Part shown: piece after piece, positions 9,092-56,764 of the stretch
How positions within the stretch are numbered: position 1 is the stretch's first letter
How the letters are laid out: each line of letters begins with the position of its first letter
NCBI GenBank assembly: GCA_965248195.1
Contig: CBDFIQ010000002.1
Location: 2,976,001-3,040,000 of the forward strand
DNA length: 64,000 nt
Origin: Longimicrobiales bacterium
GTDB lineage: Bacteria; Gemmatimonadota; Gemmatimonadetes; Longimicrobiales; Gaopeijiaceae
Reading direction: 5' to 3'
Notes under the pieces: generated by a model
Seen by the model: the letters and a program-made list of their open reading frames with translations, nothing else
Databases searched by the model: none
Told to the model about the DNA's origin: nothing
Position numbers and translations under genes: made by a program

Positions 9092-9344
9092 CAGAGTGGG
9101 CTCCGTGGCACGGCCATGAGGCGAGCAAATAGATGCCCAGCGCCGGACAGAGAGTCCGCCAGTGGATTTCTCTGCTCCGGCGCTCGAGTGGACCGTTGAT
9201 CAAGTCCAGAACAGAAGAAACCTGCGGGCTCGGGGTTCGGCCTCAATCGGAAACTCTCCCGACCATCAGGTTACCGTTGAAGACCTTCCTCGCGCAATGA
9301 CAAAAGTGGAAGCCCCTGTACCCAAAGGACTTCCGCCAGTGCCC

Positions 9345-9563
9345 GCCGGAAGCCCGCCTACCTAGGGGCTCCCGGCGAGTGAGCCGGGTGGGTCTCGAAC
9401 CCACGACCTACGGATTAAAAGTCCGATCGCAGCATATACGCAGAGTGCCCGCCAGGTAGCCTAAGTCACGCCGAGTTAGGCTGTTAGGGGGTCGGTTGTT
9501 CTCTGGAGTGTTGCTGAGATCCGACCAGCTTAGGGGAGTTTGGAGTCCCGGTCGGGGTCCCAA
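9345..9563 (-). repeat. att-like repeat copy 1: tRNA-Lys(UUU) 3' half (9380-9425), hairpin and conserved arm
   Basis: Reverse complement cggacttttaatccgtaggtcgtgggttcgagacccacccggctca gives anticodon arm, T-arm and acceptor 3' strand; no 5' half. Confidence 0.9.
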
Positions 9564-9873
9564 CGTGCCATCCAAGCGTTCAGCCGAGTATCCAGCTGCT
9601 CAGGGTGGAGGTCTAGTCTACCCCCGAGTTCGGCGATCACCACGAAGGCCTCATAGTTCTCTCGGGTCCGCTCCTGCTGATAGCCGAAGCCTACCCGGTC
9701 CACTCCCAGCCGCGGTTTTCCGCCCCGCTTGGGAGCGGCGGGAGGCGACGAAACGTTTCCGAAACGATGCCGAGGGGGGCCTGGGGGTAAGCAGGCCTGC
9801 GTGAGGTTCTACTCCGGGACCCACTCCGGTCCCGGCTATCGCACAGTCTCCCGGGCCGGGATCGGGGGGGGCG

Positions 9874-10287
9874 CTACTGGGCTCCGACCGGCAGGATCTC
9901 GACGGTCGAGTCGTGCATCCAGCCATTGTCCTCGTCGCCGATGACGACGCGCTGGCCGCGACGGATGATCTCGTGCCTGCCCTCATACCAGCGAACGATC
10001 ATGCCGGTCTCGCGGAGCCCGGGCGACAGCTGCACCTGAACCCATTCGCCGCGCCGGCCGATGATCGGTAGCACGGTGCCCTCGGTTACCAGTAATAGCA
10101 GGTTCGAGCCGGTGCTCGGCGCGTCGTGCACGTTGGCGTAGCTCGTCGGTACGCGCGCTCGCTCGCCGGCTGCTTCCTCCTGGGCTGCCGTCGGCGTCGC
10201 CAGGGTTACGACAGCGGCAGCGACCGCCAGTGCCCGCGCTCCAGCGCCGAAGTGTGGTCGCCCGGGAGTAAGTGCATCGGCTTGCAT
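9874..10287 (-). CDS. Secreted SH3-domain protein
   Basis: Signal-like N-terminus; ANVHDAPST..GTVLPIIGRRGEWVQV..GWMH. Confidence 0.7.
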   Translation of the reverse strand: MQADALTPGRPHFGAGARALAVAAAVVTLATPTAAQEEAAGERARVPTSYANVHDAPSTGSNLLLLVTEGTVLPIIGRRGEWVQVQLSPGLRETGMIVRWYEGRHEIIRRGQRVVIGDEDNGWMHDSTVEILPVGAQ

Positions 10288-10442
10288 ACGAGATAGTAGT
10301 AGCGAATAATCATCGTGGTCAAGACAACTCGCAGGGCGCGAGCCGGTCGCTCCCGCCGACGCTGGTATACGCAAGATGGGGTCTGCGCCCGACGAGTGCA
10401 CCGGAGCGCAACCGCCAGCGCAGCGCCAAACGGAGTCTGACG

Positions 10443-11669
10443 ATGCACCAACGAGATTCGCAAGTCCTGTGCTGCGCGTCACTGGCCGCTGCGGCCATTC
10501 TTCTATTGAGCGGCTGTGGCTCCGGCTCCGCTCCGCCGCCGACGGTGCGGGCCGTCGAGATGGGTGACTACGAGGTCGTGCTCGACTGGCCCAAGCCACT
10601 ACCCGACGACGATCTCTCCCACGATGGCTGGACCTGGGGGTCCGGCGCGGGGGCGTTTCCCGAAAGTCCGGACAAGGTCTGGATCGCGCAGCGCGGCGAG
10701 ATCGAGCTGCCGCCGGGCGCCGAGCCCTGGGTCTGCGCCTGCCTGCTCGAGCCGCGCCGCACGAACACGGGCCGGCGCGCCTACTCGGACAACGAGTATT
10801 TCTACGATATGCGCCGGCATCACATCGTCTTCGCCGTCGACAGCGAAGGCTACGCGATCGAGGAATGGCTCCAACACGACGCGTATTTCACGCCGCCGTG
10901 CGGCTCAGGATTGGGTGAGATCGGCCGCGGGCCGCATAAGATCCTGCAGAGTCCCTACGATCCCGAGCGGCACATCTGGATCGTCGACGACGACCAGCAC
11001 GTCATTAGCATCTTCACGAACGACGGGGACCTCGTGAAGGTGATGGGCGAGCGCGGCGTGCCCGGACAAGGGCCGAACAACTTTAATCGACCGACGGACA
11101 TCGCCTGGCTGCCCGACGGGACCTTCTTCGTGGCCGACGGCTATGTCGGCACGCGCGTCGCGAAATTCGACCCGGACGGGAACTTCATCATGGATTGGGG
11201 CCGCTCACCGGTCGATCCGGCTGATCCGCAGCCCTACGAGTTCTGGTCCGTGCACAGCATCGGCATCAGCAACGACCGGCGCATCTTCGTCGTCGATCGC
11301 GAGCACAGCCGTATGCAGGTCTTCGACGAGAACGGCACCTTCCTGACGATGTGGCCGACCGGTCTGTACTCGCAGATCCTCGCGCATACCGTAACCCTCG
11401 ACGACTACATCTGGGTCGCGAACTGGACGACCGACCGGCTCGTCAAGTACGATCTCGAAGGCCGCTACATTCTCGACATCGGCGGCTCCGGCGCGCTGCC
11501 GGGCCAGTTCGACGGCGCGCATCAGATCGAGGTCGACGAGGAGGGCAACCTCTACGTTACCGAGGTCTCGAACGACCGCTCGCAGATGTTTCGCCCGAAC
11601 CCCGGTGCCGATCCGGCACGGCTAGTGCATCGCAGGGTCGGCCAGACTCCCGCGCGTTTCCCGCAGTAA
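10443..11669 (+). CDS. NHL-repeat beta-propeller lipoprotein (PAL, peptidyl-alpha-hydroxyglycine lyase-like)
   Basis: Lipobox LSGC; FNRPTDIAW, FFVADGY, VHSI, VVDRE. Confidence 0.85.
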   Translation: MHQRDSQVLCCASLAAAAILLLSGCGSGSAPPPTVRAVEMGDYEVVLDWPKPLPDDDLSHDGWTWGSGAGAFPESPDKVWIAQRGEIELPPGAEPWVCACLLEPRRTNTGRRAYSDNEYFYDMRRHHIVFAVDSEGYAIEEWLQHDAYFTPPCGSGLGEIGRGPHKILQSPYDPERHIWIVDDDQHVISIFTNDGDLVKVMGERGVPGQGPNNFNRPTDIAWLPDGTFFVADGYVGTRVAKFDPDGNFIMDWGRSPVDPADPQPYEFWSVHSIGISNDRRIFVVDREHSRMQVFDENGTFLTMWPTGLYSQILAHTVTLDDYIWVANWTTDRLVKYDLEGRYILDIGGSGALPGQFDGAHQIEVDEEGNLYVTEVSNDRSQMFRPNPGADPARLVHRRVGQTPARFPQ

Positions 11670-11892
11670 GCGACCGCCGAGGGAGGGGGCCACCCGCACC
11701 CCAGTTGAACAGGGAACCCCCTCGCGAGGCGCACCCGAGGACTTCGAGGTGGGAGGTTGGCTGCTTCAAGCCGCTGAGGGCCGCTGAGTTGCGTGCCGTG
11801 CGCCTCAGTTCTTCCGACGTGAAGGGAGTTCTTGGGGCGTGTCGTGGGGCGTCACGCCCCACTTTCGACTCCTAACTCAGCGCAACCAAAAA

Positions 11893-12113
11893 GCCGGAAG
11901 CCCAGATACTTCCTGGACTCCCGGCCTAATGAGCCGGGTGGGTCTCGAACCCACGACCTACGGATTAAAAGTTCGATAGCAGCATATACGCAGAGTGCCC
12001 TTCAGGTAGCCTAAGTAGCTGCGAGTTAGGGTGTTAGGAGGTCGGTTGTTCTCCCGAGTGTTCTCTAGATTCGACCAGTTTCGGGGAGTTTGGGGTCTCG
12101 GTTAGGGTACCAA
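11893..12113 (-). repeat. att-like repeat copy 2 (tRNA-Lys 3' half 11930-11972)
   Basis: 43-bp core identical to copies 1 and 3, with conserved flanks. Confidence 0.9.
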
Positions 12114-12244
12114 GACAGACAGAACCTGTGGTACAGCCAGACGCCGTAACTGATGATCTCCGGAGGGAAACAGTAGCCGCAGTAGCCATTCGTATGCGTT
12201 ATGATTCCGGAGTCTCGCCGGCACGAGCTCAAGTTGACAACGCC
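12113..12244 (-). mobile_element. IS6-family remnant: terminal IR plus transposase N-terminus
   Basis: IR tcaagttgacaacgcc (12229-12244); minus-strand peptide YCGYCFPPEIISYGVWLYHRFCLS. Confidence 0.8.
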
Positions 12245-12257
12245 TTTCGGCTGGATC

Positions 12258-13343
12258 CTACCTTCTGTCGTAGCGGACGAAGGCTCTCGGACCCACCTCG
12301 GCGCCGTAGACGACCGCCCCACCGTTGATCGCCGTGACGCCCTCGGCTGCGCTGCTGCCGCCCCGGGGGTCGGGATCCGGAATGAAAGAACTCACGACGC
12401 CGTCGCGAGCGCTGCCGATCCGGATTCCGCGCTCCCATCCGGCGTGAGCCAGGTCCATGCCATTGTCGTCGCCGTCCCTCGACTCGGAGTCCGCGACGAA
12501 CAGGTTGTCGTCGGCGTCGATGAAAATCCCGCTGGGGCGGCTGAACTGGTACCAGCAATCTAGATAGTTGCCGTCCTGGTCGTAGATCTGAATGCGGTTG
12601 TTATCGCGATCGCCAATGAACAGCCGGCCTTGTGAATCAATGTCTATCGCGTGGAGGCTCGAGAACTCACCCGCTCCGCATGGGCCGTTGCCCGGCTCGC
12701 CCCATTCTAAGATGAAGTTCCCGTCTCTGTCGAACTTCATGATGCGCTCGTTCGTGCCCTCGCCATGACCATCGGCCACGAAGATGTCGCCGTTGTTCCC
12801 TACGACGACGTCGGACGGGGAGCTGAACTGGTTGGGGCCGTTCCCGGACACTTTGAGCGTGCCGAGCTGCAGCAGGATCTCACCGCTCGGGCTGAGCTTC
12901 GTGACCTGCTGTCCAACGTCGCCCCCCGCACCGCGGCCGTCGGGCGGCAGCGGGTCGGTCACCCACACGTTGCCCTGCTGGTCCACGTGGATACCGTGCG
13001 GAAACGCAAACAAGTTGGCCCCCATACGGCCAATCAGATTCCCGTTTGCGTCGTAGTGCATGAGGGGATCGACGTCGGAGTCCACACAGCCATTGCTCCC
13101 GCATCGGTCGATAGCCCAGATGTCGACGCGGCCCTTGGCGGCGTCGGCTCCGGCCGTGGAACCCCAGGTGCGGCCGTCGGGCAGCGCCATGAGCTGCCTC
13201 TCCGAGAAGGGATTCGGCAGGTTGTTGGTCGGCGTCATGTTCGGGTTGCTGTAGTCGTTCTGCTCGGTCGCCGGCGCCGCGCAGACAGTCAATGCTACAA
13301 CCAGCAGCGGCAGCAGGGCCAAACTCATTCTTGAGTGCATCAT
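12258..13343 (-). CDS. Secreted NHL-repeat (PAL-like) protein
   Basis: FAFPHGIHVD, FSSPSDVVV, IFVADGHG, HAIDID, DRDNNRIQ. Confidence 0.9.
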   Translation of the reverse strand: MMHSRMSLALLPLLVVALTVCAAPATEQNDYSNPNMTPTNNLPNPFSERQLMALPDGRTWGSTAGADAAKGRVDIWAIDRCGSNGCVDSDVDPLMHYDANGNLIGRMGANLFAFPHGIHVDQQGNVWVTDPLPPDGRGAGGDVGQQVTKLSPSGEILLQLGTLKVSGNGPNQFSSPSDVVVGNNGDIFVADGHGEGTNERIMKFDRDGNFILEWGEPGNGPCGAGEFSSLHAIDIDSQGRLFIGDRDNNRIQIYDQDGNYLDCWYQFSRPSGIFIDADDNLFVADSESRDGDDNGMDLAHAGWERGIRIGSARDGVVSSFIPDPDPRGGSSAAEGVTAINGGAVVYGAEVGPRAFVRYDRR

Positions 13344-13354
13344 AGAAACCTCGC

Positions 13355-14887
13355 TTACCTGTTCATGTTATAGAGACCTACTTCGCCGCTGCCCGTGCCG
13401 CTGCAGCTCGTCGATCCATACCTCAGAAACTTTTGCACCCGCTGCCCAGTGTCCACTTCGCCGGTGTAGATATTGCCCTGCGAGTCTACGGACAGGGCAT
13501 GGAGCCAGTGGAACTCACCCGCCTGACGGCCGGCCCGTCCAATCCGGTCGAGCTCGGTCCGGTTCTCGCGGTTGATGACGTAGAGCGTGCCGTTAGCGAG
13601 GTCCCCGACGTAGATGCAGCTCTCACCAGGATCGGTGGAGAGCGCCGCAGTGCCAGCCGTCCCGCTGGCCGTGTGCGGGGCTATATGGATCTCATCTACG
13701 AAGCCGCACGCATCGGGCTGAGCGTTCGGATTCGCGCATGGCTTGCCTAACTCCGCCGCTCCCAAATCGAAAATTTGGACGCGGTTGTTACCGCGGTCAC
13801 AGGCGTACAAGAATCCGTCTTGACTCGCGATGGCACAGTGCAGCGGACTGCGGAAGAACAAGGGCGTCATGTTGCCGGCCTGGTAGTCGGCTATCCACGG
13901 GCCGACGTCGGTATCTGCCACTACCGAACTCGGATCGTCCACGACCGGGTTCTGCCCGTACGCACCGAAATGTCCGATGTACTGTCCCGTCTCGGCGTCC
14001 ACGATCAGGATGCGCCGATTCCCGTACCCGTCCGCGACGTAGAGGCGGTTCGTGCTGGCGTCGACGGACATGTCCGCTACCAGATACGGCTGCGGTGTCC
14101 CATTGGGCCCGCCGTCAATGTTCTCGCTGTCCGGTCCTTCCATTCCGGCGGTTCCGATTTGATAGATGAACTCTCCGTCCGCCGTGAACTTCACTATGTG
14201 CGAATCGTCCCCGAAGGGTGCCGCCCACGGATAGGTCGCCAAGCCCTGTTGCTGACGGGCTCCACCGTCCTGCCCGTTCCCCGACACATATACGAAATCA
14301 TTGTGGTCCACGAAGATTCCATGCTCACGTGCCGGCCAGGAACACCCGTCCGCCTCGCGACAGTTCTCCTCGAGGAAGCCCGGATCGGCGGGCCCGCCCC
14401 AGGCGTCGAGTAGGTTCCCTTCGATGTCGAACTTGAGCACCGACGGCGCCGGTACACAGCACCCCGTGTTCCGCTCGGCGTATGGCCTTGAATGTCCGAC
14501 AGCGCTGATCGGGACACCCCGCTCATTCGTCGCAACTCTCGGCATGGCCCCGGCAGAGCTCGCATTCAGCGTCCGCGGCCGATGATACACCCAGATATTG
14601 TCGTTCGAGTCCACGGAAATTCCGCCGACCTGGCCGATCCGCCAATCGTTGGGCAGCGGCTTTGGCCAGCTTGGGTCGACCACGAAGCTCGGCGCCGAAG
14701 CGCCGTCGGGAGCCCGGGACGCCCATCGACTCTCGCCGAGGTTTTCGACCACTCCGGCTTCGCGAAGCGCGGCCGCGGCTGCGCCTTCTTCCGCCGGCGG
14801 TCCGTCTTGCTCCGGACTCATGCAGGCGGCGCTGCCAAAAGCAGTCCCGAGCAGAACAACAAGGGCGACCAAATGAGTCTTCGACAT
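13355..14887 (-). CDS. NHL-repeat lipoprotein
   Basis: SAAC lipobox, FVVDPSWPKPLP, HGIFVD, LYVADGYGN, CDRGNNRVQ, HALSVDSQGNIY. Confidence 0.85.
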   Translation of the reverse strand: MSKTHLVALVVLLGTAFGSAACMSPEQDGPPAEEGAAAAALREAGVVENLGESRWASRAPDGASAPSFVVDPSWPKPLPNDWRIGQVGGISVDSNDNIWVYHRPRTLNASSAGAMPRVATNERGVPISAVGHSRPYAERNTGCCVPAPSVLKFDIEGNLLDAWGGPADPGFLEENCREADGCSWPAREHGIFVDHNDFVYVSGNGQDGGARQQQGLATYPWAAPFGDDSHIVKFTADGEFIYQIGTAGMEGPDSENIDGGPNGTPQPYLVADMSVDASTNRLYVADGYGNRRILIVDAETGQYIGHFGAYGQNPVVDDPSSVVADTDVGPWIADYQAGNMTPLFFRSPLHCAIASQDGFLYACDRGNNRVQIFDLGAAELGKPCANPNAQPDACGFVDEIHIAPHTASGTAGTAALSTDPGESCIYVGDLANGTLYVINRENRTELDRIGRAGRQAGEFHWLHALSVDSQGNIYTGEVDTGQRVQKFLRYGSTSCSGTGSGEVGLYNMNR

Positions 14888-14968
14888 GACACGCCTCTTC
14901 CTACCTACTAAGGTTGCGACAGGATCTCGCTATGTATGTAGCTCGCAACATCGTGCAACTCCTCGAGG

Positions 14969-14984
14969 GGCATTGTCAACTTGA
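14969..14984. mobile_element. Isolated IS6-family terminal IR
   Basis: ggcattgtcaacttga; 15/16 inverted match to 12229-12244. Confidence 0.65.
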
Positions 14985-15242
14985 TGTGGCCGGAGTGAAG
15001 CTCAAGTAGGGGATTGATTATCGAGTACGACGAAGGGGACGAGGTGGCGATCCTGTCGCCGTTAGGCATCGCAGAGGTTGAGGAACACATTCTTCCTTCC
15101 TTGATCGCGTGACGTGTGGGTGTCTGGGTTGTCGTCCAACGTCGCGCTCCCGCTCGCGCCCTTATAGAGCGAGCGCTCGACGCGTTCAGATACTCCGACT
15201 TCCCCTCCCATCCGCTGAGTCCCCACCACGCAACCTGAGTTT

Positions 15243-15523
15243 TTGGGGTACCACTTGGGGTCCCATAGGCCCATTTTCGGCCCTGACTCGCGGACACCAA
15301 AAAGCCGGAAGCCCGCCTACCTAAGGGCTTCCGGCCCAGTGAGCCGGGTGGGTCTCGAACCCACGACCTACGGATTAAAAGTCCGATAGCAGCATATACG
15401 CAGAGTGCCCACGAGGTAGCCTAAGTTGTGTCAAGTTAGGGTGTTAGGGGGTCAGTTGTTCTCTCTAGGGGTCCTGAGATACGACCAGTTTCGGGGAGTT
15501 TGGGGTCCCGGTTGGGGTCCCAA
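15243..15523 (-). repeat. att-like repeat copy 3 (tRNA-Lys 3' half 15340-15385) with arm-type repeats on both sides
   Basis: Same core; tggggtacc-act-tggggtccc on the left and tggggtccc-ggt-tggggtccc on the right. Confidence 0.9.
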
Positions 15524-15742
15524 AACTGTCTGAAACCATCAGTGTCGTTCTACTCGACGGTATCAGGCCTATACCGACTCACCCATCGCCGCCCATCCAC
15601 ACATCCAGTTGTCCCATTCGAGCATTTGCTAAATGCCTGGCCGCCCGCCTCACCCTCCAACCCTGGCGGCCGGCCGCAAATTGACGGGTTTGGACCTCGC
15701 ACTCACGTTGTCCCAACCCGCCAAAGGGCTTTTGCTTTTCCT

Positions 15743-16190
15743 TCTATGGGGAGTCGGGCCCTGGCCGCGGCGCTCACCGAAATCGGCCGAGACATCTCGG
15801 AGCCGCTCTTCGGCGAAGTGATCTTCGCCGCACCCGACATCGATGCGCGGGAGTTTCGCAGTATCGTCGCCCCGGCGATCGTCGGGACGGCCGAGCGCAT
15901 CACGCTGTACGCGTCCTCGAAGGACCGGGCGCTGCGTGTGTCACAGGCCCTCCACGACTATCCACGGGCCGGGGACTCCGGCGAGGGGCTCAACCGTCCT
16001 CGAAGGAATCGAGACGAGCGACGCGTCGGTCATCGACACGAGCTTGCTCGGGCACTCCTACTTCGCGGATGCGACCTAGCTGGTCAGAGATCTGTTGTCG
16101 GTCATCCTCGAAGCCCTTCCGCCCTCCGATCGTTCTCTGGAGGCCGATGTCAAAGCGGGTATGACGTACTGGCGATTCGGAGTGAGTGGG
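15743..16190 (+). pseudogene. Alpha/beta hydrolase (DUF900-like), 5'-truncated and frameshifted
   Basis: SMG..FAAPDID..TLYASSKDRAL..PRAG, then a shifted frame reading DASVIDTSLLGHSYF. Confidence 0.75.
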
Positions 16191-16390
16191 TAGAGTCCGC
16201 TCGAGGCACTGTCGGATCAGCTCGAGCACACGGTCGGCTGACGACCAATTTCTTGTTGCATCTGCGCTCCCCCTCTTCTATTATGGCCTGTCGTACCCTG
16301 GCGCGGCTGTGACCCCCCCCCACTGAGATTTCCGCGTTCCAGGACCTGCGCTCCATGCAAGACGGCCTCAGGACGACGGATCTACAGCCT

Positions 16391-17914
16391 ATGGCGTTCA
16401 TCGACGGTTTCGGACACGACGTCTTCATCAGCTACGCCCATGTCGACGCCCCCGACCCGTACCATCCCGAGAGCTGGATGGACCGGTTTGACGCGGCGTT
16501 GCAGATCCAGCTAGAACAAAGACTCAACAAGCTGGCGTTTTCGATGTGGCGGGACGACCGTCGGCTGATGCCGAACTTCGAATTCGACGAGGAAATCGCC
16601 CAGAGCATCGACAGCAGCGCCGTCTTGCTGGTACTGCTCTCGCCCGGGTACGTCGATTCGCCCTATTGCCGGATGGAACTCGAGCGCTTCGTGAAGACGG
16701 CGAAGGCGTCCTCCCTCGGGCTCAAGGTCGATAGCGGTTCGCGAATTTTCTTGGTCAAGCTCGATGAGTTGCGACCGGACCAAGCTCAACCGCCCGTGCT
16801 CCAGACCATGGACGGAGTCCAACTCTTCGAGAGGGACAAGAAGAATCTACCACGGAGGTTGCGTGACGGTGACCTCTACCAAGAAGCTGTCGATAGGCTC
16901 GCGGTCCAACTCGCGACCTTTCTGATGCAGATGAAGCAAGCGACGCCGACTCGGAAAGTTTCGACTCGGCCGGTAGCCGGCCTGACGCCGGGCTCCGGGG
17001 GTCCGACGACGGTCTTCCTCGGACATGCGACGTCCGATCTCGAGGAGCAGCGCGAACAACTTGCGGAGACGCTGACGCAGTATGGGGTCACTGTACTGCC
17101 GGATATCGACCCCGCTGGCTTGGATCTGGACTCGCTGACGGACGCGATCGCGAAGCACTGTTCGGCTGCGACGATCTCATTCCACCTTACGGGCAGGAGA
17201 CACGGCGAGCCCCTCTACGGAGACGAGCTCAACCCGACGCTGCCGGTCCTGGACTATGAGGTTGCTGTCGACACGGCCGACTCCCGCAGAAAGAGTCAGG
17301 CCGAGCTGGGGGAATTGGACTCCAACGCGCCTGCCTCCGTGATTGTGTGGACGCCGGGCGAAGTAATCGCCAGCCTGGGGGAAGTGGACGATGCACAGAA
17401 GCAGTTCCTCAGGGAGATCAAGAGACAGAAGAGCGCGAGCGTCGAGTGGTTGCAGCAAGGCATGGAAAACCTAATCGACATCTCGTTCAAGCGGCTCGGC
17501 GTCGAGCGCGAGCAGCCCACAACGGATGCGGTCTCCGACAGCGCCTATGTGCTGGTTTCGTGCAAGCCCGAGGCCAAGCACCATAACGACTTTCGGAAGA
17601 TCCTGGATTACCTGCTCGACCATGGGGTGGACTACGAGTTCGACATCAACAGCGACGTGTCCTTCCAGGAGCATGCTTCACTCTACGATGGCTTATTGAT
17701 CCTCTACCTCGAGTCCGGCGAAACCTGGGTGAAGGCCCGAGCGCGGGAGGCCTCCCAGTGTATCCGGCGACGCAAGGGCCTGGTCGCCGGCATTTACGAC
17801 GGTCCCCCACCCGAGAAACCCGAGTTCGGCTTTGAATCGAGCACGGTCCCGGTCTACGTCGGGCGCGACGGCTTCGATGGCCATGTGCTCGACAATTTCC
17901 TGGAAAGGTTCTAG
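16391..17914 (+). CDS. TIR-domain protein (N-terminal TIR plus two degenerate TIR-like segments)
   Basis: DVFISYAH, MWRD, LLSPGYVDSPYCRMEL; later VFLGHATSDL and YVLVSC segments. Confidence 0.8.
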   Translation: MAFIDGFGHDVFISYAHVDAPDPYHPESWMDRFDAALQIQLEQRLNKLAFSMWRDDRRLMPNFEFDEEIAQSIDSSAVLLVLLSPGYVDSPYCRMELERFVKTAKASSLGLKVDSGSRIFLVKLDELRPDQAQPPVLQTMDGVQLFERDKKNLPRRLRDGDLYQEAVDRLAVQLATFLMQMKQATPTRKVSTRPVAGLTPGSGGPTTVFLGHATSDLEEQREQLAETLTQYGVTVLPDIDPAGLDLDSLTDAIAKHCSAATISFHLTGRRHGEPLYGDELNPTLPVLDYEVAVDTADSRRKSQAELGELDSNAPASVIVWTPGEVIASLGEVDDAQKQFLREIKRQKSASVEWLQQGMENLIDISFKRLGVEREQPTTDAVSDSAYVLVSCKPEAKHHNDFRKILDYLLDHGVDYEFDINSDVSFQEHASLYDGLLILYLESGETWVKARAREASQCIRRRKGLVAGIYDGPPPEKPEFGFESSTVPVYVGRDGFDGHVLDNFLERF

Positions 17915-17925
17915 GGGACACCGTC

Positions 17926-18648
17926 GTGACGGATGGCGACGCACTCCAGGAAGCGGCAGATCGGCGCTTGAACCCCTTCCCGGGGATTCGGCCGTACCAG
18001 CCCGACGAGTCCCACCTCTTCTTCGGTCGCGACGAGCACGTACACGAACTCCTACGCACGATGCGGCGCAATCGTTTTGTCGCGGTGCTCGGGAATTCGG
18101 GTACGGGAAAATCGTCTATTGTCCGAGCCGGGGTGCTTCCACCGCTCGAGTCGGGCTTCATGGTGCCCGAGGCGGGGCTTTGGCGCATGGCGATCATGCA
18201 GCCGGGGAGGTCGGACCCGATCCGGGCGTTGGCGGATGCCATCAGCAGCGACAAGAAGCGCGGCTGGGGGCTCGGGAAGTCCCGCGACGAGGTGCTTCGA
18301 GAATTGAGGCGCGGGGGTCTCGGCCTCATCAATGTCGCTCAGCAAGCGCCTGTCAGACCGGGGAGCCGGTTTCTCATACTCGTCGATCAATTCGAAGAAC
18401 TCTTCGGGTTCATGGACGCACCCGGAGACTTCAGAGGAAGCGACGAAGCCCGTGCGTTTATCCGGCTGTTGATCGAGGCCACGACGAACTCGAGCCTGCC
18501 GATCTACGTCGTGATGACGATGCGCTCGGAGTTTCTGGGCCACTGTGCGGCCCTGCCGGGCCTTACGGAGATTATCAACCGTAGCCTCTATCTCGTTCCG
18601 GAGCTGACTCGGGACCAGCTTCGACAAGTCATCGAGGGCCCGGTACAC
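17926..18648 (+). pseudogene. nSTAND1-type NTPase, truncated by IS3
   Basis: NPFPGIRPY..LFFGRD, Walker A GNSGTGKSS, Walker B LVDQFEELF, TMRSEF. Confidence 0.85.
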
Positions 18649-18706
18649 TGGAGTGAACCCCTGAGGGTGGACAACGAGAGTTGGTTGGATTGACCAGTCA
18701 GTGGCT

Positions 18707-19501
18707 TCAAGCTGCATGAATGCTCTCGAATTCCTCAGGTGGCATGTAACCGAGCGAGGAGTGCAAGCGTCTTCGATTGTACACCTCCTCAAGGAAGTGG
18801 GGGAGTCGGTTGGCTACGTCATCAATTGTGCTGTAGTCGTTTGCCAAGATCTCCTCGTGCTTCAGGGTTTTGAAAAAGCTCTCAACATGGGCGTTGTCGT
18901 ACGGGTTGCCCCGCCGGGACATCGATCCTCGGACACCGTGTTCGGCGAGACGTGAACGGTACAATTGGGATGCATACTGGACGCCGCGATCGGAGTGGTG
19001 GATGAGGCCAGACCGCGGCTGCCGAAGTTCGAGTGCGGCATCGAGTGCGGCCAGGCAAAGACGCACGTCCAGGAGATGGCTGATGGCGTAGCCAATGACA
19101 CGCCGCGACCACACGTCGAGCACGACGGCTAGGAAAACAAAGCCGGTCGTGAGCCGGATGTACGTCAGATCGGCCACCCAGAGCTCGTCAGGCCCCTCGG
19201 GCGTGATCGACGACCTCAGGTTCGGGTAGATGCGCTGCTTGTGATTGCTGTTCGTCGTAGCAAGCCATGCGCGTACGCGGTGGGGCGTAAGCGCGTGTTC
19301 ACGCATAATCCTAGAGACTCGCTTGTGATTGACCACCAGGCCGCGTCTCCCGAGTTCGTGCGTGACCCGGCGATATCCGTAGGCGGGGAACTCGGCGAGA
19401 ATGTCTTCGATCCGCACGCGCAGGTCCCCGTCCGCTCTCTCCCGAGCGGTCTCGCAGGCCGCATCCGGTCGCTTGTAGAAGGTACTCCTCGGGATGTTCA
19501 T
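18707..19501 (-). CDS. IS3 OrfB DDE transposase (joined to OrfA by -1 frameshift)
   Basis: YGYRR, WVADLTYI, HHSDRGVQY, DNAHVESFFKTLK. Confidence 0.95.
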   Translation of the reverse strand: MNIPRSTFYKRPDAACETARERADGDLRVRIEDILAEFPAYGYRRVTHELGRRGLVVNHKRVSRIMREHALTPHRVRAWLATTNSNHKQRIYPNLRSSITPEGPDELWVADLTYIRLTTGFVFLAVVLDVWSRRVIGYAISHLLDVRLCLAALDAALELRQPRSGLIHHSDRGVQYASQLYRSRLAEHGVRGSMSRRGNPYDNAHVESFFKTLKHEEILANDYSTIDDVANRLPHFLEEVYNRRRLHSSLGYMPPEEFESIHAA

Positions 19502-19860
19502 GAGGCTGCATCCCCGTCGGACAGGGACACCCCTGGCCCGGAGATGATCGACGGCCGCGCGCTTTTCTGTGACGGCTGTATCAGAGCCCTTTTTTTCATG
19601 GCGTCGAGTTCCATCGTCAACTGACCAATCTTGCGCTCGAGTGCCGCGATCTTGGCCTGGTCCTCGACAACTTGCTCCTGCAGGTGGATCTCCTCCGTAA
19701 GTTCGCCTTCCCCGTACTTCTTGACCCAGATCATGAGTAGGGAGTGAGGTACACTGTGTCGAGTAGCGATCGCCCTCGCACTGCCTTCTCCATCCAAGTA
19801 CGCCTGGACCAGCTGGATCTTGAACTCCGTGCTGTACCTCGTGTGTCGTCGAACCGTCAT
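19498..19860 (-). CDS. IS3 OrfA HTH protein
   Basis: RYSTEFK HTH plus coiled coil. Confidence 0.9.
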   Translation of the reverse strand: MTVRRHTRYSTEFKIQLVQAYLDGEGSARAIATRHSVPHSLLMIWVKKYGEGELTEEIHLQEQVVEDQAKIAALERKIGQLTMELDAMKKRALIQPSQKSARPSIISGPGVSLSDGDAAS

Positions 19861-19998
19861 CGAACCTCCCGAGTGATTACGGAAGGTCAATCCATCGCCC
19901 CCTCTGTGTCCACTTTGTAGGGTTCACTCCAAGACCTGTGCAGCTTTCGATGGCCGTTGACACGGGGAACATAATGGGGGAGGGAGGCCGTGGGAAAC

Positions 19999-20026
19999 TT
20001 GACATTTCATGGGCCCTTTCTAGGTT
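19999..20026 (+). promoter_or_regulatory. Sigma70-like promoter, probably the original tRNA-Gly/Cys promoter
   Basis: TTGACA-16 bp-TAGGTT. Confidence 0.5.
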
Positions 20027-20189
20027 CCAGCGCACAATTGAAGGGTGTTTCGGAAACGTTTTGTGTAGGTTTGGGTAGGGATCCGAGACACCCTTTTTCT
20101 TGGGGGATTATATCCAATCGTAACCAAACCCCTTGACTTTGGCCAGTCATAATGTTACTATTAGTCTGTAAATTAGACTAGGAGAAACG

Positions 20190-20830
20190 ATGGCTAAGTC
20201 AGGACCCGGTAAGCACTTCCGAAAGGGGCTCTCACTCATTCAGGTTATGCGGATGTTCCCAGACGATGCGACGGCAGAGCGGTGGATCGCTCAGTGCCGG
20301 TGGGGCGGCGAGCCCGCTTGCCCGCATTGCGGGAGCGATAACGTCCAGGTAGGCGCGAAGCATCCGAGCCAGCCCTATCGTTGCCGCGAGAAGGGTTGCC
20401 GGAAGTTCTTCAGCGTGAAGACCGACACGGCAATGGCCGGGAGCAACCTGGGCTGTCAGACTTGGGCCGTTGCTACGTACTTGCTCGCTACGGGTCTCAA
20501 GGGCCAGGCGTCGATGAAGCTTCACCGCGACCTAGATATCGGACAGAAGGCCGCATGGTTCCTGGCGCACCGCCTACGCGAGACGTGGGAGGCGCAGCAA
20601 GCCCCTTTCACAGCAAGCCCCTTTCAAGGGGCCGGTGGAAGTAGATGAGACCTACATCGGCGGCTTGGAGAAGAACAAGCACGTAGGCAAGAAGGCGAAC
20701 CTGGGCCGGGGCGCGAGTGGCAAGGCCGCCGTGGCAGGCGCGAAGGATCGGGCGACGGGCAGGGTGGCCGCCCGCGTCGTCCACGCGACCGACAGGCAGA
20801 CGCTGCAAGGCTTTGTACGGGGCCAGATAG
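20190..20830 (+). pseudogene. IS1595 transposase, frameshifted and truncated
   Basis: CPHCGS..YRCREKGC zinc ribbon, VEVDETYIGG; 16-bp tandem duplication at 20595-20626. Confidence 0.9.
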
Positions 20831-21237
20831 GAATTGAAGTAAAGATACTAGCCAAGGCGATGATTAAGCAGATCGGTCGCGTTCAAAACGACTTGCGGGA
20901 TCAGGTTGCCCAGTTTCAGCGTGGTATTGGAACGCCCATCTGTGTCGGCATTGTTGGCGTTAATCACGCTGACTACTGCATAAGCTACGAGGGAGAACAG
21001 GCTTGGCCAACGGATGGAGTAAGGCACAAGCACCCAATCCAAGAGGCGGAAATTGCAGAGCAGCGACTGCGAGAAGAAGTGGGCACCAAGTTTGACGAGC
21101 TCTTGTTTCTCCGCTACAAGGCGACGAATGATGAGCCGTACCCGTTCGAGTGGGCTAGCTACGCCGACACTTTTCAGGACTACGGTGCCGCCTTAACTCG
21201 CATCTCTCGCGCTTATGACACAAGGTTTGGGCCGTGA
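20828..21237 (+). pseudogene. Passenger-gene remnant, PD-(D/E)XK nuclease-like, fused to the transposase
   Basis: Abrupt switch to IGIEVKILAK; lower GC. Confidence 0.45.
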
Positions 21238-21449
21238 AAGAACACCAACAGGACCTACCCCAGGCGGAGCCGCCCATGAAAGACGATGCAAAGGCACCAT
21301 CCAAGCGCGGCCGCCCGGTCGAGCACTCAATGCCGGACCCCATACCGGACACTCCCGAGAACATCATGAAGGCGTTCCTGAAGACGCCGCCGCGCAAGCG
21401 TGAGGAATGGAAGTTCGTGCAGGAACGGGACAAGAAACAGGCCCCATAG
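21234..21449 (+). CDS. Small IS1595-internal ORF
   Basis: RGRP..IPDTPENIMKAFL, adjacent to the right IR. Confidence 0.55.
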   Translation: MKEHQQDLPQAEPPMKDDAKAPSKRGRPVEHSMPDPIPDTPENIMKAFLKTPPRKREEWKFVQERDKKQAP

Positions 21450-21491
21450 CGCCGGGGCCGTGGTTACGATTGGATATAATCCCCTTTTCTT

Positions 21492-21564
<73 letters not shown>

Positions 21565-21614
21565 TTGGAAGAGGGGTGAGCCCGTCACTCAGGACGTGCA
21601 GCCCCTCTTTTTTA

Positions 21615-21686
21615 GGCGCCGTAGCCAAGCGGTAAGGCAGAGGCCTGCAAAGCCTTTATTCCCCGGTTCGAATCCGGGCGACGCCT
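21615..21686 (+). tRNA. tRNA-Cys(GCA)
   Basis: ggcgccg..gaggc-ctgcaaa-gcctt..ttcgaat..cgacgcc. Confidence 0.95.
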
Positions 21687-22000
21687 CTAGGGTTTCGGGA
21701 GTTATCGACATCGGCGCGAATTTGGCCACCGTAATCTACCCGTGTCACGGCGTTGTCGAATGCACGGCGCAGAGACCCTATACGCGTCCCAGCTTCGGCT
21801 CGTCGCCGTCGACAATCATGGTGGAATACCCAAGGCGACCGTTTCCCCGCGTAGGTCCGCAGTCGGTACGCGGCTGAGTTTCGGTTCGCCTGAGCCCCCG
21901 CTTGACCCCCCGAACGCTGGCGTGAGGCCGCAACTTGACCCGTTTGGCACTGCCCCTCACGTTATCCCGACCCGTCAAAGGGCTTTTGGTTTACCTATCC

Positions 22001-22305
22001 TCACGACGGACCTCGATATCGTCGCGGGAAAATGGAAGGACAGACGTTACGGGACGTACCGCGGAATCCGGAAGGGCAAAAGCCGGTCCGGAGGGGTCGC
22101 GTTCGGCGACAAGGGGATTCTGACCTCGTATCAGGTCGAGGGGAACAACAGCTATCACAATCTGCTCGTTGAGATCGTGAAGTTCTTCAAGACTGGGAAG
22201 TCGCCCCGTCTCCACTCAGGAGATGCTGGAGGTGGTGGCCTTCATGCAGGCGGCCGACGTGAGCAAGGAGCGGAAGGGCGCCGAAGTCAAATTGTTCGAG
22301 CTTGA
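22001..22305 (+). pseudogene. Gfo/Idh/MocA-like C-terminal fragment, frameshifted
   Basis: GKWKD.RYGTYRG..LLVEIVKFFKTGKSP, then a shifted frame reading EMLEVVAFMQAADVSK. Confidence 0.6.
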
Positions 22306-45327: not shown

Positions 45328-45776
45328 TGTCCCGACGCAAAGGTATTCGAGCTGACGCCGGCTTCTCGCTGGTCGAGCTGATCATGGCTCTCTTCGTACT
45401 CGCCTTCGGTGTGGTGGGGCTCGCTACGACGACGCTGTTCATCACCCGCCAACTCACGCTGGCGGAGGTCACCACGGCGCGAGTCGCTGCCAGCGCCGCG
45501 CGCGTGCTGCTCATGGCGGTCGTCGGCTACACCCTGCCCCTGATCCTGGGCGATGCGCTGGGCTGGATCGCGGTCGGGACTGACGCTTACACGCTGCTCG
45601 GCGGGCTCGTGACGATCCTAGGCGCATGGGCCGGTGGACCGCACGCTATACAGTACCTCGGCCCGCAGGTGGGCGCGGTGCTCTCCCGCGTCGGTGGCGG
45701 ACGTCGCGGCTACTCAGGGCCCGAGGTGTCCGTGCGCGTGGGAGACAACCCGGCGACGGACGATGAACGCGGCTGA
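45327..45776 (+). pseudogene. PilV-like prepilin N-terminus fused in frame to a phage holin-like C-terminus
   Basis: GFSLVEL; sequence character changes at ~45490; stop overlaps the amidase start. Confidence 0.55.
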
Positions 45777-46329
45777 ACTCGCGCTCTCGTTCACGCCCAG
45801 CATGATCGAGCTCCGTCCCAAGGCCCACGCTTGGAACGATCGGCTCAGGGAGACCCGAAAGGGCGTCATGCTCCACTACGACGCTTCGCGGTCGGACGCC
45901 GGAGCCGTCGCGTGGCTCGCTTCGCCCGACATCAAGGCGTCCTACAACCTGATCGTCTACGACGATGGATCGTGGGCCACGGTTGTGCCGCTGGAAGCCC
46001 GTGCGTGGCACGCCGGGAAGTGTCGGCCGTCTGACCGTGTGACCTCATACGAAGACGCCAACTCCGCGTTCTACGGGATCGCGATCCTGAACTCCGGGCG
46101 CGAGGACGTGACACCGCGTCAGATGCTCACGACCGCTTGGCTTACCCGGCGGCTCTTCCTGCGGCACGGCTGGCCCGTCAGCGAGGCATGGCGTCTGACC
46201 ACGCACTCCGCCGAGGCGTGGCCACGTGGCCGCAAGATCGACCCCGAAGGACCCGATCCAGCGAACCCGATACTCAGCCGGGCCGACATCCTCGATCTGC
46301 TGCCCATCGTGCACGGACCGCCCCTGTGA
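45763..46329 (+). CDS. N-acetylmuramoyl-L-alanine amidase (endolysin)
   Basis: MLHY, ASYN, RAWHAG, N..GI, THS, RKIDP. Confidence 0.85.
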   Translation: MNAAELALSFTPSMIELRPKAHAWNDRLRETRKGVMLHYDASRSDAGAVAWLASPDIKASYNLIVYDDGSWATVVPLEARAWHAGKCRPSDRVTSYEDANSAFYGIAILNSGREDVTPRQMLTTAWLTRRLFLRHGWPVSEAWRLTTHSAEAWPRGRKIDPEGPDPANPILSRADILDLLPIVHGPPL

Positions 46330-46970
46330 GCCTCCTGCTCCGCTACCCGCGTGAGATCGCCGTCCTCGCGCTCACCGCGCTGGCCTTCGCCGCGTTCTGG
46401 GGCTGGGTCGGTGAGCGTGAACGCGCGGCGGCCGCACAGGCACGAGCCGAGATCGTTCAACAGCGCCTCGACGCCTCCCTGGACTCCCTGGACATCGAAC
46501 GCGATCACAGGGCCAGGGCCGACTCCCAGGCTGCCCGCAACCTGCGCGAACTGGTTGACGTACGTGCCGAGAGCGAGAGAGCCGAGCGGGCAGCTGAGGA
46601 TGCGGTTCGATTGGCCGAACAAAACGTCAGCCTCACCCTGGACAGCATCCGTGACAATAATACGCCTGAAATCCGCGACGTCGCGAACATACTTGAGATG
46701 CATCTAGACCAGGAACGGGCAGCCAGCCGGACACTCGTCCGGTCGCTACGCTCACAACTCGCGGTCGCTGATTCCACTGCCCGGCTCTGGCAGACTCGCT
46801 ACGTCGCCGCCGAAAGGGTGAGCGCCACCCAAGACCAGGTGATCCAGGACTACGAGGCTCGCCTACGGGTCGAGCGGCAGCGGAACGACACGAGGTGGAC
46901 GGGCCCTTTCGTCCGTGTCCTCAAGTACGTCGGGGTGTTCGCGGCTGGGTATGCGCTGGCGAGCCGGTGA
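46326..46970 (+). CDS. Spanin-like TM/coiled-coil protein
   Basis: N-terminal TM, coiled coil, follows the endolysin. Confidence 0.55.
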   Translation: MSLLLRYPREIAVLALTALAFAAFWGWVGERERAAAAQARAEIVQQRLDASLDSLDIERDHRARADSQAARNLRELVDVRAESERAERAAEDAVRLAEQNVSLTLDSIRDNNTPEIRDVANILEMHLDQERAASRTLVRSLRSQLAVADSTARLWQTRYVAAERVSATQDQVIQDYEARLRVERQRNDTRWTGPFVRVLKYVGVFAAGYALASR

Positions 46971-47286
46971 ATGATGAGCTTCCGAGCCCGAGCCCCGCGC
47001 TGCTAGCAAATCCACTTCAATGAGCCGAAATTGGCCCCCCAGGCCCTATTCGCCGTTTCGTGGCGGCGCTCACCCTAAGATGGTTAGGGGGTTCGGTACC
47101 TGGTGGGGCCGCACCTGCAATATTGTACCTATATTATAACGCAACGCAACGGGCCAGCACCAAGGCAGCTGGTCCGACCCAGTGATCGGGGTCCTCCGGT
47201 ATGTCGGGGTGTTCGCGGCGGGTTATGCGATCGCGAGTCGGTAAGGCCGCCGTTCCCTAACGGCTACCTCAAAGCAGGCGGCTGGA

Positions 47287-47874
47287 TTACTCCATGCCCA
47301 GCTGCACCTTTAACCATGACAACAGAAAGTTGCCGAGCGTGGTCCCCACCCCAAGGAGCACGGTCCCCACGCCGAGCAGCAGGACCTTGAGCCGCTTCCC
47401 TAACAGACTTCCTTCCCAACTCGTGGTGGGAAAGCCAATCTCATCCAGAACAATGAACGGAATCCGGGCAAACCACATCAGCAGTCTGAAGAGCCACCAA
47501 AACGGATTGATCGTGCGAAAAAGCGCTGCCCGACGAGTAGACTGGTAAACGCCAATAGCCCTCTCTATCAGGTCGGTTACTTGGCTTTCTGGAATCTCGA
47601 ATTCGTCCAACTTGAACACATTATAAATCACGTCGACGTCGTGCGTATATCTGCCCACGTTAGATGGCGCCCTCCACTTAATGATAGGATTTACGTTCGC
47701 CCCGTAGATGATATGATGAGCCCAGTCAACTGTGTGGGTGATTCGTTCCCGTGCCTGTACGCTTTCAGTTTTCTTAGGACTGTTGAAATAGATTACGACA
47801 TCACTGTGAAATTTTTTCAAGATCTGCAGACGCCTAGTGTTTTCCCAAAAGTGGATGCGCCTGTATGAATTCAT
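47287..47874 (-). CDS. Low-GC hypothetical membrane protein (moron-like)
   Basis: AT-rich codons; hydrophobic C-terminus. Confidence 0.6.
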   Translation of the reverse strand: MNSYRRIHFWENTRRLQILKKFHSDVVIYFNSPKKTESVQARERITHTVDWAHHIIYGANVNPIIKWRAPSNVGRYTHDVDVIYNVFKLDEFEIPESQVTDLIERAIGVYQSTRRAALFRTINPFWWLFRLLMWFARIPFIVLDEIGFPTTSWEGSLLGKRLKVLLLGVGTVLLGVGTTLGNFLLSWLKVQLGME

Positions 47875-47877
47875 AGC

Positions 47878-48793
47878 GATTGTACCGGCAGTTGTATTCG
47901 TTGTCGCCGGGGATCATCTGGCCGTTCGAGTAGCTTTGGTCGCCGTGCGCCTCTTCGCCCTCCATGTCCTCGTGGCTTTGTCGGCGCCTGGAGTCATTGA
48001 CGCCAAGCCAGCGCCGGTAGAGAGCGGCCCTGGGGATGACACCGCGCTGTACGGCGTCCAGCCACGAGAGCCGTTGACCGCGTTTCTGGGCCTCGAGCGC
48101 GATGCTCTTCGCCTGCGTGTCGGCGTTGTACGCGATCATGCGCCGGCGGTAGGCGCCGCTCATCTGATCGACCTGCGCAGCCGAGAGGCCAGTACCACGC
48201 TGACCCAACGCCTTCCGCAGCGTGGGATCGAAGCGTCGGTCACGGAGCTCACGGGTGAGCGCCTGTCGATCGCCGCGACGGAGCATGTCTTCGAGGTTTC
48301 GGATATCCCGCTCCTGGTTCGGAGCGAGCCCGATCACTCCCCGGATCCGGCGTGCGGCGGTGCGGGGATGCTGGCGGCGAGTGCCTCAATCCCCAGCCCT
48401 ACGCACGGTCTCACGCACGCCGGCCTTGATTCGAGCGATGGCGATCGCGTTGCGATCCCGTGCGGCATCGAGGATAAGCGGGTTGAGTACGTCGAAGGCG
48501 GCAGGCCGGAATGCTCGCGGGAGTTCCGCGGTTGCCATGGCCGCGGAGCTCGCCAGCGTCTGGTTCATGGCGACCCGGAACGAAAGAAGCCCCGGCTCGA
48601 GCGCTTCGTCGGAGAGCAGCTCTGCGATCATCGGCTCGATGAACCCGAGCTCGATGGCGTCAACGAGCTCGCGCTCGGTGAGTAGTCGACGGATGAAGTC
48701 GTAGAGCGCCAACTCGCGGCGCGCTAATATCGGTGACTGTTCGAGAGCCCGACGCTGTAGCCGCCTCCGCAGTGCTCGTTCGCCCGGAGTCAC
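47878..48793 (-). pseudogene. Phage head morphogenesis protein (SPP1 gp7/Mu gpF-like)
   Basis: RRW..DSRRRQSH..PG..YNCR; in-frame TGA at 48386-48388; 3' truncated. Confidence 0.7.
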
Positions 48794-48839
48794 GCCGGGC
48801 ACGCCTGGGCGGGTACTGGCTTCACCATGCTGACGATGC

Positions 48840-50432: not shown

Positions 50433-51719
50433 AGTACGAATCCTCCCTCTTCGGCGAAGTCGTACTCGACTTCGGTGGCTTCTGGCAGCTCTGGCTCGGA
50501 CAGCTTCGACAGGATGTAGCGCTCGGCGTCCATGAAGTGGAACGTGCTTTTGTCCTCGATCTTCGCGGTCGGCTGGTCCATGTCGTCCAACGCCCGCCGG
50601 TAGGTTTCCTTCTCCTCGAGGTAGCCCTCGCACGTGTCGAATACTTTGATTTCGCCCCTGGCGTGGAAGGCGTACACACGATCGATGCCTACCTCGACGT
50701 CACTGAAATCCGGGCCCTCTACGCCGAGACCTGCGGCTGCGAATTCCTCTCGCCATTGGTCCTCTGACTTCGAGCCTCCCGCGCAGAGGGTCGGATATTT
50801 CTCGCCGCTCGTCATGGCCTCGACGTGCTGCGCCGCCGTGCGGCCGCCTGCCTTGTATTCCCGGTACAGGTAGAGCGTCGGGCTCCCTGGCTCTTGGGCG
50901 TAGAACAGAGCGGTCGTATTCACGCCTCCGAAGTCGAGGCCCATGTAGCGATGCCAGCGGGCGGGCACCTTGAAGGCCGGGATCTTGTCGTGGTCCGGAT
51001 CGAATGCGTCGTAGATGACACCGGCCGGGCGTGTGAAGATGCCGCGGTAAAAGAGATCGAACTTCCACCGCGGAAGATCCCTTTTCGCACGCTCCCATTC
51101 GGCACGCGGAAACATCGGGTTGGCGATGGACTCGAAACGGATGAACTCGATGTCCTCGCCTCCAGCCTTCCAGGGATCGTAGAGCTTTTGTTTGAGCCAG
51201 CCGAGGTCGTAGGCACCGCCCCTCATGGATCGACAGGCGCCGCAGAATGGCCTCCCAACTGCCGAGCTTGAACTTCCGTTGCCCCGCTTCGTCCAACCAC
51301 GCTGCTTTCGCGGTTGCAGACTCGAGCGATTCCGGATCCTCCGCGTAGCCGAAGAAGATCTGCGTGGGCTCGTCTTGCTCAGCGCCGAAGAGCTTCACCT
51401 CGCCGCCCTTCGAGACCACGAGGACCTTGTCCGAGGAGCGGTAGTTCCCGAGACCAAGTAGGTCCTGGAAGAGCCGTTTGAATTCCGGGAGCGCCTTCTT
51501 GTCCAAGAGCTTGTAGGTGGGACTCACGACGAGGTAGTCGCCTGGGCCGCGGCGTGTGATCTCCCGATGAAGCCAAGCCGGCCCGACGACAGTTTTACCA
51601 GCTTGGGTGCCGGCCACAATCGCGATCAACCGCCGGACGCTCTTCATCGCCTTCGCCTGCCAACAATGGAAGTTGAACCTCAGGACACCCGCATCAGAGA
51701 TCTCCATGAACGGCTTCAT
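50429..51719 (-). pseudogene. Terminase large subunit (Terminase_6 type), frameshift/deletion at ~51213
   Basis: AGTQAGKT, WLDEAG, GLDFG, HFMDAERY. Confidence 0.85.
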
Positions 51720-53426: not shown

Positions 53427-53562
53427 AATACCGTCCCTTGTGTGGTACTATGGATTCATCCACTAGGAACAGTACGGGAACGGAGATTTTCGCGTAATCC
53501 CCGAAATCGGTAGGTACCGGTATCGGTAGGTACCGGTATCGATAGGTTGCGGGAGGAGCGAG

Positions 53563-53829: not shown

Positions 53830-53840
53830 GGTCCTCGCCT

Positions 53841-56649: not shown

Positions 56650-56682
56650 AGGAAACGGAAATCAGTTTTTTCAACCCCCGTC

Positions 56683-56739: not shown

Positions 56740-56764
56740 GCGACGATCTAACCGGCAGTCCCGC

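Follow-up and report, generated by a model that had tools for sequence, protein, structure and literature searches.

The window studied here is a 64,000-nucleotide stretch of a Longimicrobiales genome (assembly GCA_965248195.1, contig CBDFIQ010000002.1, positions 2,976,001 to 3,040,000). It carries three direct repeats between positions 9345 and 15570 that are attachment (att)-like junctions, built like the hybrid sites expected where elements have inserted in tandem. The explanation we favor, and hold to be probable, is that these junctions separate units without an integrase that belong to a single tRNA-Lys island. Repeated site-specific insertion at the anticodon loop probably built this island, and insertion sequences (IS), deletion and recombination between arms have likely remodeled it since. 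Below, G000 is the genome studied, C1 and C2 are its contigs, and other G numbers denote comparison genomes.

The three copies are spaced 2550 and 3410 bp apart and are 80-86% identical across 210 bp. A run of exactly 43 bp, starting at 9380, 11930 and 15340, is identical in all three, and pairwise comparison shows 14-20% divergence beyond this core. The spacings, the core length and the start positions reproduce exactly those of an initial annotation made from the letters alone, which had also recognized the core as the 3' half of tRNA-Lys(UUU); it indeed matches the 3' part, from the anticodon arm onward, of the intact tRNA-Lys(ttt) gene at G000:C2:264881-264954. Rfam returned only sub-threshold YrlA and tRNA matches for the cores. 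Read on the minus strand, each copy consists of two 9-bp repeats with a 12-bp period, an arm of ~115 bp, the tRNA-Lys(UUU) 3' half and a hairpin. The inverted pair cctaa..ttagg and the 12-bp-period repeats (9541/9553, 12091/12103 and 15501/15513) described for the arm are visible in the sequence. The terminator-like hairpin assigned to each copy can likewise be seen, but that of copy 1 has no T-run, and beyond it come a tRNA-Lys(CUU)-type tail and another hairpin at 9308-9334. Repeats on both sides had been noted for copy 3; they are present there, in the same direction, in a second arm after the hairpin (15244/15256), but a variant form of them also occurs on the second side of copy 2 (11833/11845). 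The junctions are laid out as follows.

9300..9344, minus strand: tRNA-Lys(CUU)-type tail and second terminator hairpin (9308-9334); the start of the next unit, which has a right-hand side of a different element type; similar to the CUU att fragments on C1
9345..9563, minus strand: att junction copy 1, with arm (repeats 9541/9553), core 9380-9422 and hairpin
11800..12113, minus strand: att junction copy 2, with arm (12091/12103), core 11930-11972, terminator 11891-11927 and variant second arm (11833/11845)
15170..15570, minus strand: att junction copy 3, a complete attP-like (phage-type) layout with arm (15501/15513), core 15340-15382, terminator and second arm (15244/15256)

Unit B lies between copies 1 and 2 and unit A between copies 2 and 3, each bounded by a second arm on one end and by arm plus core on the other. 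By Pfam, their cargo comprises three NHL-repeat proteins and one SH3 protein; apart from these, the units hold IS6 stumps, with no integrase or transfer genes.

The only tRNA genes in the window are tRNA-Gly and tRNA-Cys. The initial annotation's statement that no intact tRNA-Lys is present is thus true of the window but not of the genome, which holds the intact gene and three further copies elsewhere. The gene, followed by its own second arm, lies 2.7 Mb away; two further repeat copies sit beside it, at C2 269396 and 275735, and 21 kb to the left of copy 1 there is an arm stump. Directly behind the copy at C2 275735 is an IS3 element that is 100% identical to the IS3 at window positions 18649-19931 and inverted relative to it. 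Because the target-site duplication at the IS3 copies is ambiguous, an inversion was assessed by synteny. In all four relatives searched (G004, G005, G006 and G011), the segment at window 19963-20110, followed by tRNA-Gly/Cys, joins the gene at G000 C2:282.3 kb, and in G005 and G009 the tRNA-Lys region is followed by genes that in G000 lie to the left of the window, at C2:2.89-2.96 Mb. An inversion of ~2.7 Mb at the IS3 copies, real or mis-assembled, therefore split one array and parted its far half from the tRNA, which is why the window lacks tRNA-Lys. With the inversion undone, the array is about 43 kb long, and its intervals measure 4.5, 6.3, 4.7, 3.4, 2.55 and 21 kb. It then shows tandem units at tRNA-Lys with chimeric internal att sites, an arrangement seen directly in relatives. 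The description of the intervals as minimal cassettes found no support; at 2.55-21 kb they are not uniformly minimal. Within the same array, tRNA-Ser-type att fragments occur at C2:272010-272090 and 269549 (tRNA identity judged by eye), which suggests that pieces of other tRNAs' islands have been carried along. At the tRNA-end breakpoint (C2:276042-282220), two inverted IS3 copies flank an IS21-like element.

We searched for the arm pattern in a family set of 314 genomes, with the reversed pattern as a control. It occurred at 77 places in 23 genomes, all with titles naming Longimicrobiales, against one place for the control, and is therefore not a product of chance. Twelve further stretches with arms came from a species-genome collection, all titled Longimicrobiales or Gemmatimonadota/Gemmatimonadetes, and 37 from metagenomes; viral contigs contained none. 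A class-wide DNA search of 351 genomes, in which two candidates were scored per genome, placed the arms only in this family (f1) among the matches listed. In eight relatives (G004, G005, G006, G011, G124, G125, G130 and G131) the arrays begin at an intact tRNA-Lys(UUU) or (CUU). Among 55 distinct arms, 19 adjoin a UUU core, 14 a CUU core and 20 no full core, with two running off the contig; up to seven att marks occur in one array, and UUU and CUU junctions are found together on contig L217. The distance from the first repeat to the loop is exactly 140 bp in 25 of the 29 sites with a callable loop. Outside the search motif, 59 of 110 arm columns are at least 90% conserved, with a variance 4.3 times the binomial expectation, a figure inflated by kinship. 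This regularity suggests past selection on the att sites for their geometry.

The initial annotation saw no integrase in the window, and none of G000's 21 PF00589 matches falls within it; the interval from the tRNA to the IS3 cluster in G000 has no PF00589 match either. Flanks of up to 2.5 kb from each arm were searched by tblastn with about 50 integrases and with a local hidden Markov model. Neither the 66 arm flanks, 58 of them 1.3 kb or longer, nor the 49 second-arm flanks, 41 of them likewise 1.3 kb or longer, yielded an intact integrase. These counts are upper bounds, as de-duplication was ungapped and near-duplicates entered twice. Integrase fragments with 26-156 aligned residues were present in 8 of the 115 flanks, all belonging to other families or lying far from the arm. 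Twelve fully bracketed units of 1225-12737 bp contained no intact integrase, and three of them held stumps. Pfam analysis of adjacent open reading frames (ORFs; 65 of 83 beside arms and 56 of 72 beside second arms, those dropped being mostly overlapping or repeated) yielded no integrase family, and a positive-control integrase was detected. In G000, G004-G007, G011, G123-G125, G130 and G131, no PF00589 position lay beside an arm among the matches listed, and no large serine recombinase was found in G000. That the units are stacked at att-type junctions of a tRNA-Lys site without an integrase thus applies here and in relatives alike.

No parent element with these arms was found in the 314 family genomes, the 12 genome stretches, the 37 metagenome stretches or the viral contigs. 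Related autonomous elements consist of a tRNA half, an arm of ~130-150 bp and 12-bp-period repeats, with an Arm-DNA-bind_3 integrase tens of bases beyond. One integrase family is associated with TGGACCCCA-type 12-bp repeats at tRNA anticodon loops, including that of tRNA-Lys(CUU), in G124, G170 and G172. It is intact in the same-genus genome G011 (87%) and in G124, is absent from G000 (best match 31%), and no relative of the G124 integrase (L117:7674-8882) was found in the viral contigs. This family is the nearest candidate for a helper, a connection that we infer. In this family (L117:7674-9100 of G124; L154-L159), the att site holds the 5' half of a tRNA (Lys, Pro or Val) rather than the 3' half. 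G000 has two Arm-DNA-bind_3 integrases, neither of them with these arms. We also considered a 49-codon integrase C-terminal stump that follows the second arm in L046 and L219 as a remnant of the parent, and rejected it, as its full-length relatives showed no such arms; it is further disfavored in that it also follows a tRNA-Ser-type site. A five-copy tyrosine recombinase of 445 aa near the array was rejected as the cognate integrase because it has no arms. Separately, G000 harbors a second island at tRNA-Lys(CUU) (G000:C1:1323435-1367860), with two att fragments, an intact Arm-DNA-bind_3 integrase and differing repeats.

Compared across genomes, as the initial annotation had proposed, the cassettes share cargo at 95-99% identity in differing order. 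The NHL pair of unit A is 95.7% identical in G006, and its 361-aa member plus the arm is 96.2% identical in G011, the core flanks being 80-88% identical. A PQQ/FGE module precedes the NHL pair in G006 and lies two junctions after it in G000. Three cassette ends each occur next to a UUU half in one place and a CUU half in another, one of them more than 99% identical across 2.2 kb. The differences between these paired ends start 12 bp before the loop or within the arm, not at the anticodon loop, which argues against clean action of an integrase. Between L002 and L066 there are 3 mismatches in 400 bp upstream and 19 in the 140-bp arm; between L248 and copy 2, there are 10 in 400 bp and 22 in 140 bp. 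Arms far more divergent than the adjoining cargo point to recombination between arms.

Decay is equally visible. The NHL pair is bracketed by IS6 ends, at 14969 and at 12122-12246, and the right-end stump measures 277 bp in G011, 135 bp in G006 and about 54 bp in G000; in G006, the pair has an IS6 stump at one end and a bare core fragment at the other instead of full sites. Contigs from eight sequencing runs extend over the cargo of both units and differ little there; X1 and X2 derive from one sample, possibly the source of the assembly, and are therefore not independent support. In seven of the eight runs, a 147-bp deletion through copy 2 (11938 to 12086) has removed the core and the proximal arm, and a 693-bp contig of an independent run (X14 record 18) connects units B and A over the copy-2 junction. 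The adjacency of A and B is thus confirmed, and the copy-2 junction is often destroyed. Other joints between repeat copies in run contigs were considered as circular junctions or empty sites and rejected as repeat artefacts. The initial annotation had contrasted its cassettes with decayed large islands that carry integrase remnants in a fixed order; the order does differ, but IS6 remnants, deleted att cores and other-family integrase fragments in the relatives' arrays are signs of decay that speak against its reading.

On the favored explanation, and going by established tyrosine-integrase biology, the junctions would have been made by a tyrosine integrase of the arm-binding, tRNA-targeting type. 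The anticodon loop of tRNA-Lys would have received arm-bearing elements one by one, every insertion creating a hybrid site, with each newcomer presumably entering at the tRNA and pushing older units outward. The NHL cargo may have arrived through IS6 transposition, and the surviving integrase-less units would have been loaded or trimmed by IS elements and would now change by deletion and arm recombination. Such units, resembling cis-mobilizable elements (CIMEs), would be mobile only with a passing helper element or via homologous recombination through the conserved arms, and in G000 those of the window probably have little or no activity left. Several observations weigh against this account. 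No parent integrative and conjugative element (ICE), integrative and mobilizable element (IME) or phage with these arms was found in the collections searched, so that descent by decay is tentative. Independent decay should leave stumps at the arms, but only the 8 fragment-bearing flanks were recovered, with fragments of other families or far off. The arms look selected, given the 140-bp spacing in 25 of 29 sites and the 4.3-fold overdispersion of columns, inflated as it is by relatedness, and the 2.2-kb end that is more than 99% identical yet joined to both isoacceptor halves points to recent movement. The remaining oddity is that the parent integrase is wholly absent over 115 flanks although the arms are well kept.

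On a different reading, the units form a dedicated family of att-bracketed non-autonomous cassettes, kept by selection, moved in trans by the integrase of a rare helper (phage or island), with cargo captured by means of IS6. This is the idea of the initial annotation stripped of its integron label, and we regard it as unlikely. In its fullest form, also doubtful in our judgment, marine Longimicrobiales would host, throughout the family, miniature att cassettes that were never autonomous, each with two conserved arms and 1-13 kb of cargo loaded by IS6, using either tRNA-Lys isoacceptor and a borrowed integrase, and trading arms by recombination. The lack of an intact integrase in every flank and complete unit, the fixed arm spacing with conservation in blocks and the three ends found on both halves all agree with it, as does a TGGACCCCA-repeat integrase family that hits tRNA anticodon loops and is intact in G011. 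However, that family is missing from G000 and has different repeats and a mirrored att polarity; G000's own Arm-DNA-bind_3 integrases lack these arms; and no viral contig carries the pattern. Moreover, the switch between shared ends falls within the arm or 12 bp before the loop rather than at the loop, and the G006 NHL pair lies between an IS6 stump and a core fragment rather than full sites.

It is more doubtful still that all current reshuffling reflects RecA-type homologous recombination on the arms and the 43-bp core, with integrases confined to a distant origin. Matching cargo ends with different arms (L002 and L066; L248 and copy 2) and the mixed junctions of L217 are what such exchange would produce, but it leaves the fixed spacing, with conserved blocks and variable spacers, unexplained. 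Homologous exchange is compatible with the tRNA-Lys island explanation as a later process. That the repeats or their order are assembly joins is very improbable: G000 is rich in identical IS copies, no run contig spans the whole stretch and the inversion itself could be an IS3 mis-join, but the copies differ by 14-20% outside the core, the same architecture recurs in many genomes and, for A and B, the 693-bp bridging contig largely refutes it.

Integrons carry an IntI gene beside attI at the array head, and their cassettes end in attC hairpin sites. As in integrons, small swappable gene units are arrayed here at one site. However, there is no IntI/attI platform, the array head being the tRNA gene and then SelO; judged on anatomy, the junctions are double-stranded att-type sites with arms rather than attC hairpins, and the units hold one or two genes in either orientation plus IS scars. 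The label "integron-like" in the initial annotation was thus not borne out; the structure corresponds to CIMEs and additive islands as they are known from the literature. CIMEs have lost integration and transfer genes, retain attL and attR, and grow by accretion (PMC5704250). They and site-specific accretion were defined for relatives of ICESt1/ICESt3 and for Streptococcus tRNA-Lys islands (PMC5704250, PMC7563491); classical CIMEs span 1.2-13 kb with cargo, and 215 are reported, citing another study, at one S. agalactiae tRNA-Lys locus (PMC7563491). The units described here similarly hold cargo within 1.2-13 kb, lack recombination and transfer genes, and stand att-bounded and in tandem with chimeric internal sites at a tRNA-Lys 3' end (PMC5704250, PMC7563491). 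Three features of CIMEs are accordingly present: att-bounded units, no integrase or transfer genes inside, and a tandem arrangement with chimeric att sites at the target. CIMEs derive by deletion from an ICE or IME and are transferred in cis by an element that integrates at their att site, whereas none of the arrays here yielded an ICE or IME with matching arms. Also unlike CIMEs, one arm family serves both tRNA-Lys isoacceptors, and an array may contain up to seven att marks. We consider the locus a tandem-accretion island of CIME-like units, likely following a known mode of island growth rather than acting as an integron-like capture machine.

Other tRNA-based islands share parts of this architecture. 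Additive flexible islands of Alteromonas occupy a tRNA hotspot where partial tRNA repeats mark cassettes that are near-identical between species and whose number and order are unrelated to phylogeny; the word "integrase" is absent from the main text of that paper (PMC4898812). The fixed tRNA hotspot, the variable number and order of cassettes and their near-identity across species recur here, whereas full arms with paired repeats are preserved in our arrays and can be traced across the family (PMC4898812). In Prochlorococcus tycheposon islands, serial integration at tRNAs pushes older elements outward and scatters partial tRNAs and degenerate remnants, which are likewise found throughout the present island; unlike our units, tycheposons carry an integrase and often replication genes (10.1101/2020.12.28.424599). 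Islander relies on a tRNA with a co-oriented 3' fragment and recognizes anticodon-centered att sites, and both the co-oriented fragment and the anticodon-loop crossover class apply here (PMC4383910). In contrast to members of the Islander and tycheposon sets, no integrase gene of their own was found in the units (PMC4383910, 10.1101/2020.12.28.424599), which Islander would discard because it demands an integrase in each tandem member (PMC4383910).

The locus maps a site of gene gain and swapping in an uncultured marine Gemmatimonadota lineage, involving NHL and PQQ beta-propellers, kinases, transporters and defense genes (a SMODS nucleotidyltransferase in G125), and represents an island class that integrase-requiring finders discard. 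The last of these genes lie in L121:9492-12386 of G125, where a 3.3-kb unit between these arms contains SMODS nucleotidyltransferase genes, probably resembling a cyclic oligonucleotide-based antiphage signaling system (CBASS), beside an IS-broken integrase of another family. If a helper integrase were found and small units still recombined, the ~370-bp copy-3 site would be a ready attP substrate, and the long-assumed interspecies movement of integrase-less tRNA cassettes would become directly testable outside Firmicutes. If the miniature-cassette reading were true, these elements would be a parasite of tRNA integrases, akin to miniature inverted-repeat transposable elements, serving as a gene-exchange platform.

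The cargo and its surroundings contain the following features.

9533..9808, minus strand: 92-codon open frame without a start codon, ending within the arm; possibly a gene stump, with no relative among longer proteins (a weak negative)
9874..10290, minus strand: unit B, small bacterial-SH3-domain protein (PF08239)
10443..11669, plus strand: unit B, NHL-repeat beta-propeller protein, 408 aa (PF01436)
12122..12246, minus strand: left end of an IS6-family element with the initial ~120 bp of its transposase region, truncated at the arm; 80.8% to the IS6 copy C2:272110-272229 (PF13610)
12258..13343, minus strand: unit A, NHL-repeat protein, 361 aa (Pfam); 96% in G006 and G011
13355..14887, minus strand: unit A, NHL-repeat protein, 510 aa (Pfam); deleted in G011
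14969..15014, plus strand: IS6-family right-end remnant; longer remnants in G006 and G011
16355..18648, plus strand: TIR-domain gene and truncated nSTAND1 gene (Pfam), cargo of the next unit toward the tRNA
18649..19931, minus strand: IS3-family element marking the inversion breakpoint; its sequence matches that of the copy next to the tRNA-Lys array at 100% identity

The segment at 15760-18648, comprising a broken DUF900 hydrolase, the TIR-domain gene and the IS-truncated nSTAND1 gene, appears to be the remains of a defense-like module, with coverage mainly from run X1. A ~90-bp repeat at 15653/21907 was considered as part of the att site and rejected as a dispersed intergenic repeat; it (15645-15742 and 21888-22005) recurs across the genome in about 20 weaker copies, which often lie upstream of a gene, and has no Rfam match. 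From ~45600 to 64000 and slightly beyond, the window holds a prophage-like block with a weak portal match, terminase-like ORFs recognized by eye, a primase-helicase and DNA methylase-like ORFs; neither a tyrosine nor a large serine integrase was matched in its vicinity. The IS load of G000 is very high, two elements each being present in at least dozens of near-identical copies, and 17 tRNA genes lie within 2.2 kb at G000:C1:1071378-1073597, near an integrase fragment. The tRNA-Gly(GCC)/tRNA-Cys pair occurs twice in G000, at window 21485-21688 and at C2:1468447-1468651 (95.6%); an IS1595-type element is inserted upstream of the window copy, and the form without this insertion is seen in reads (20095 to 21485).

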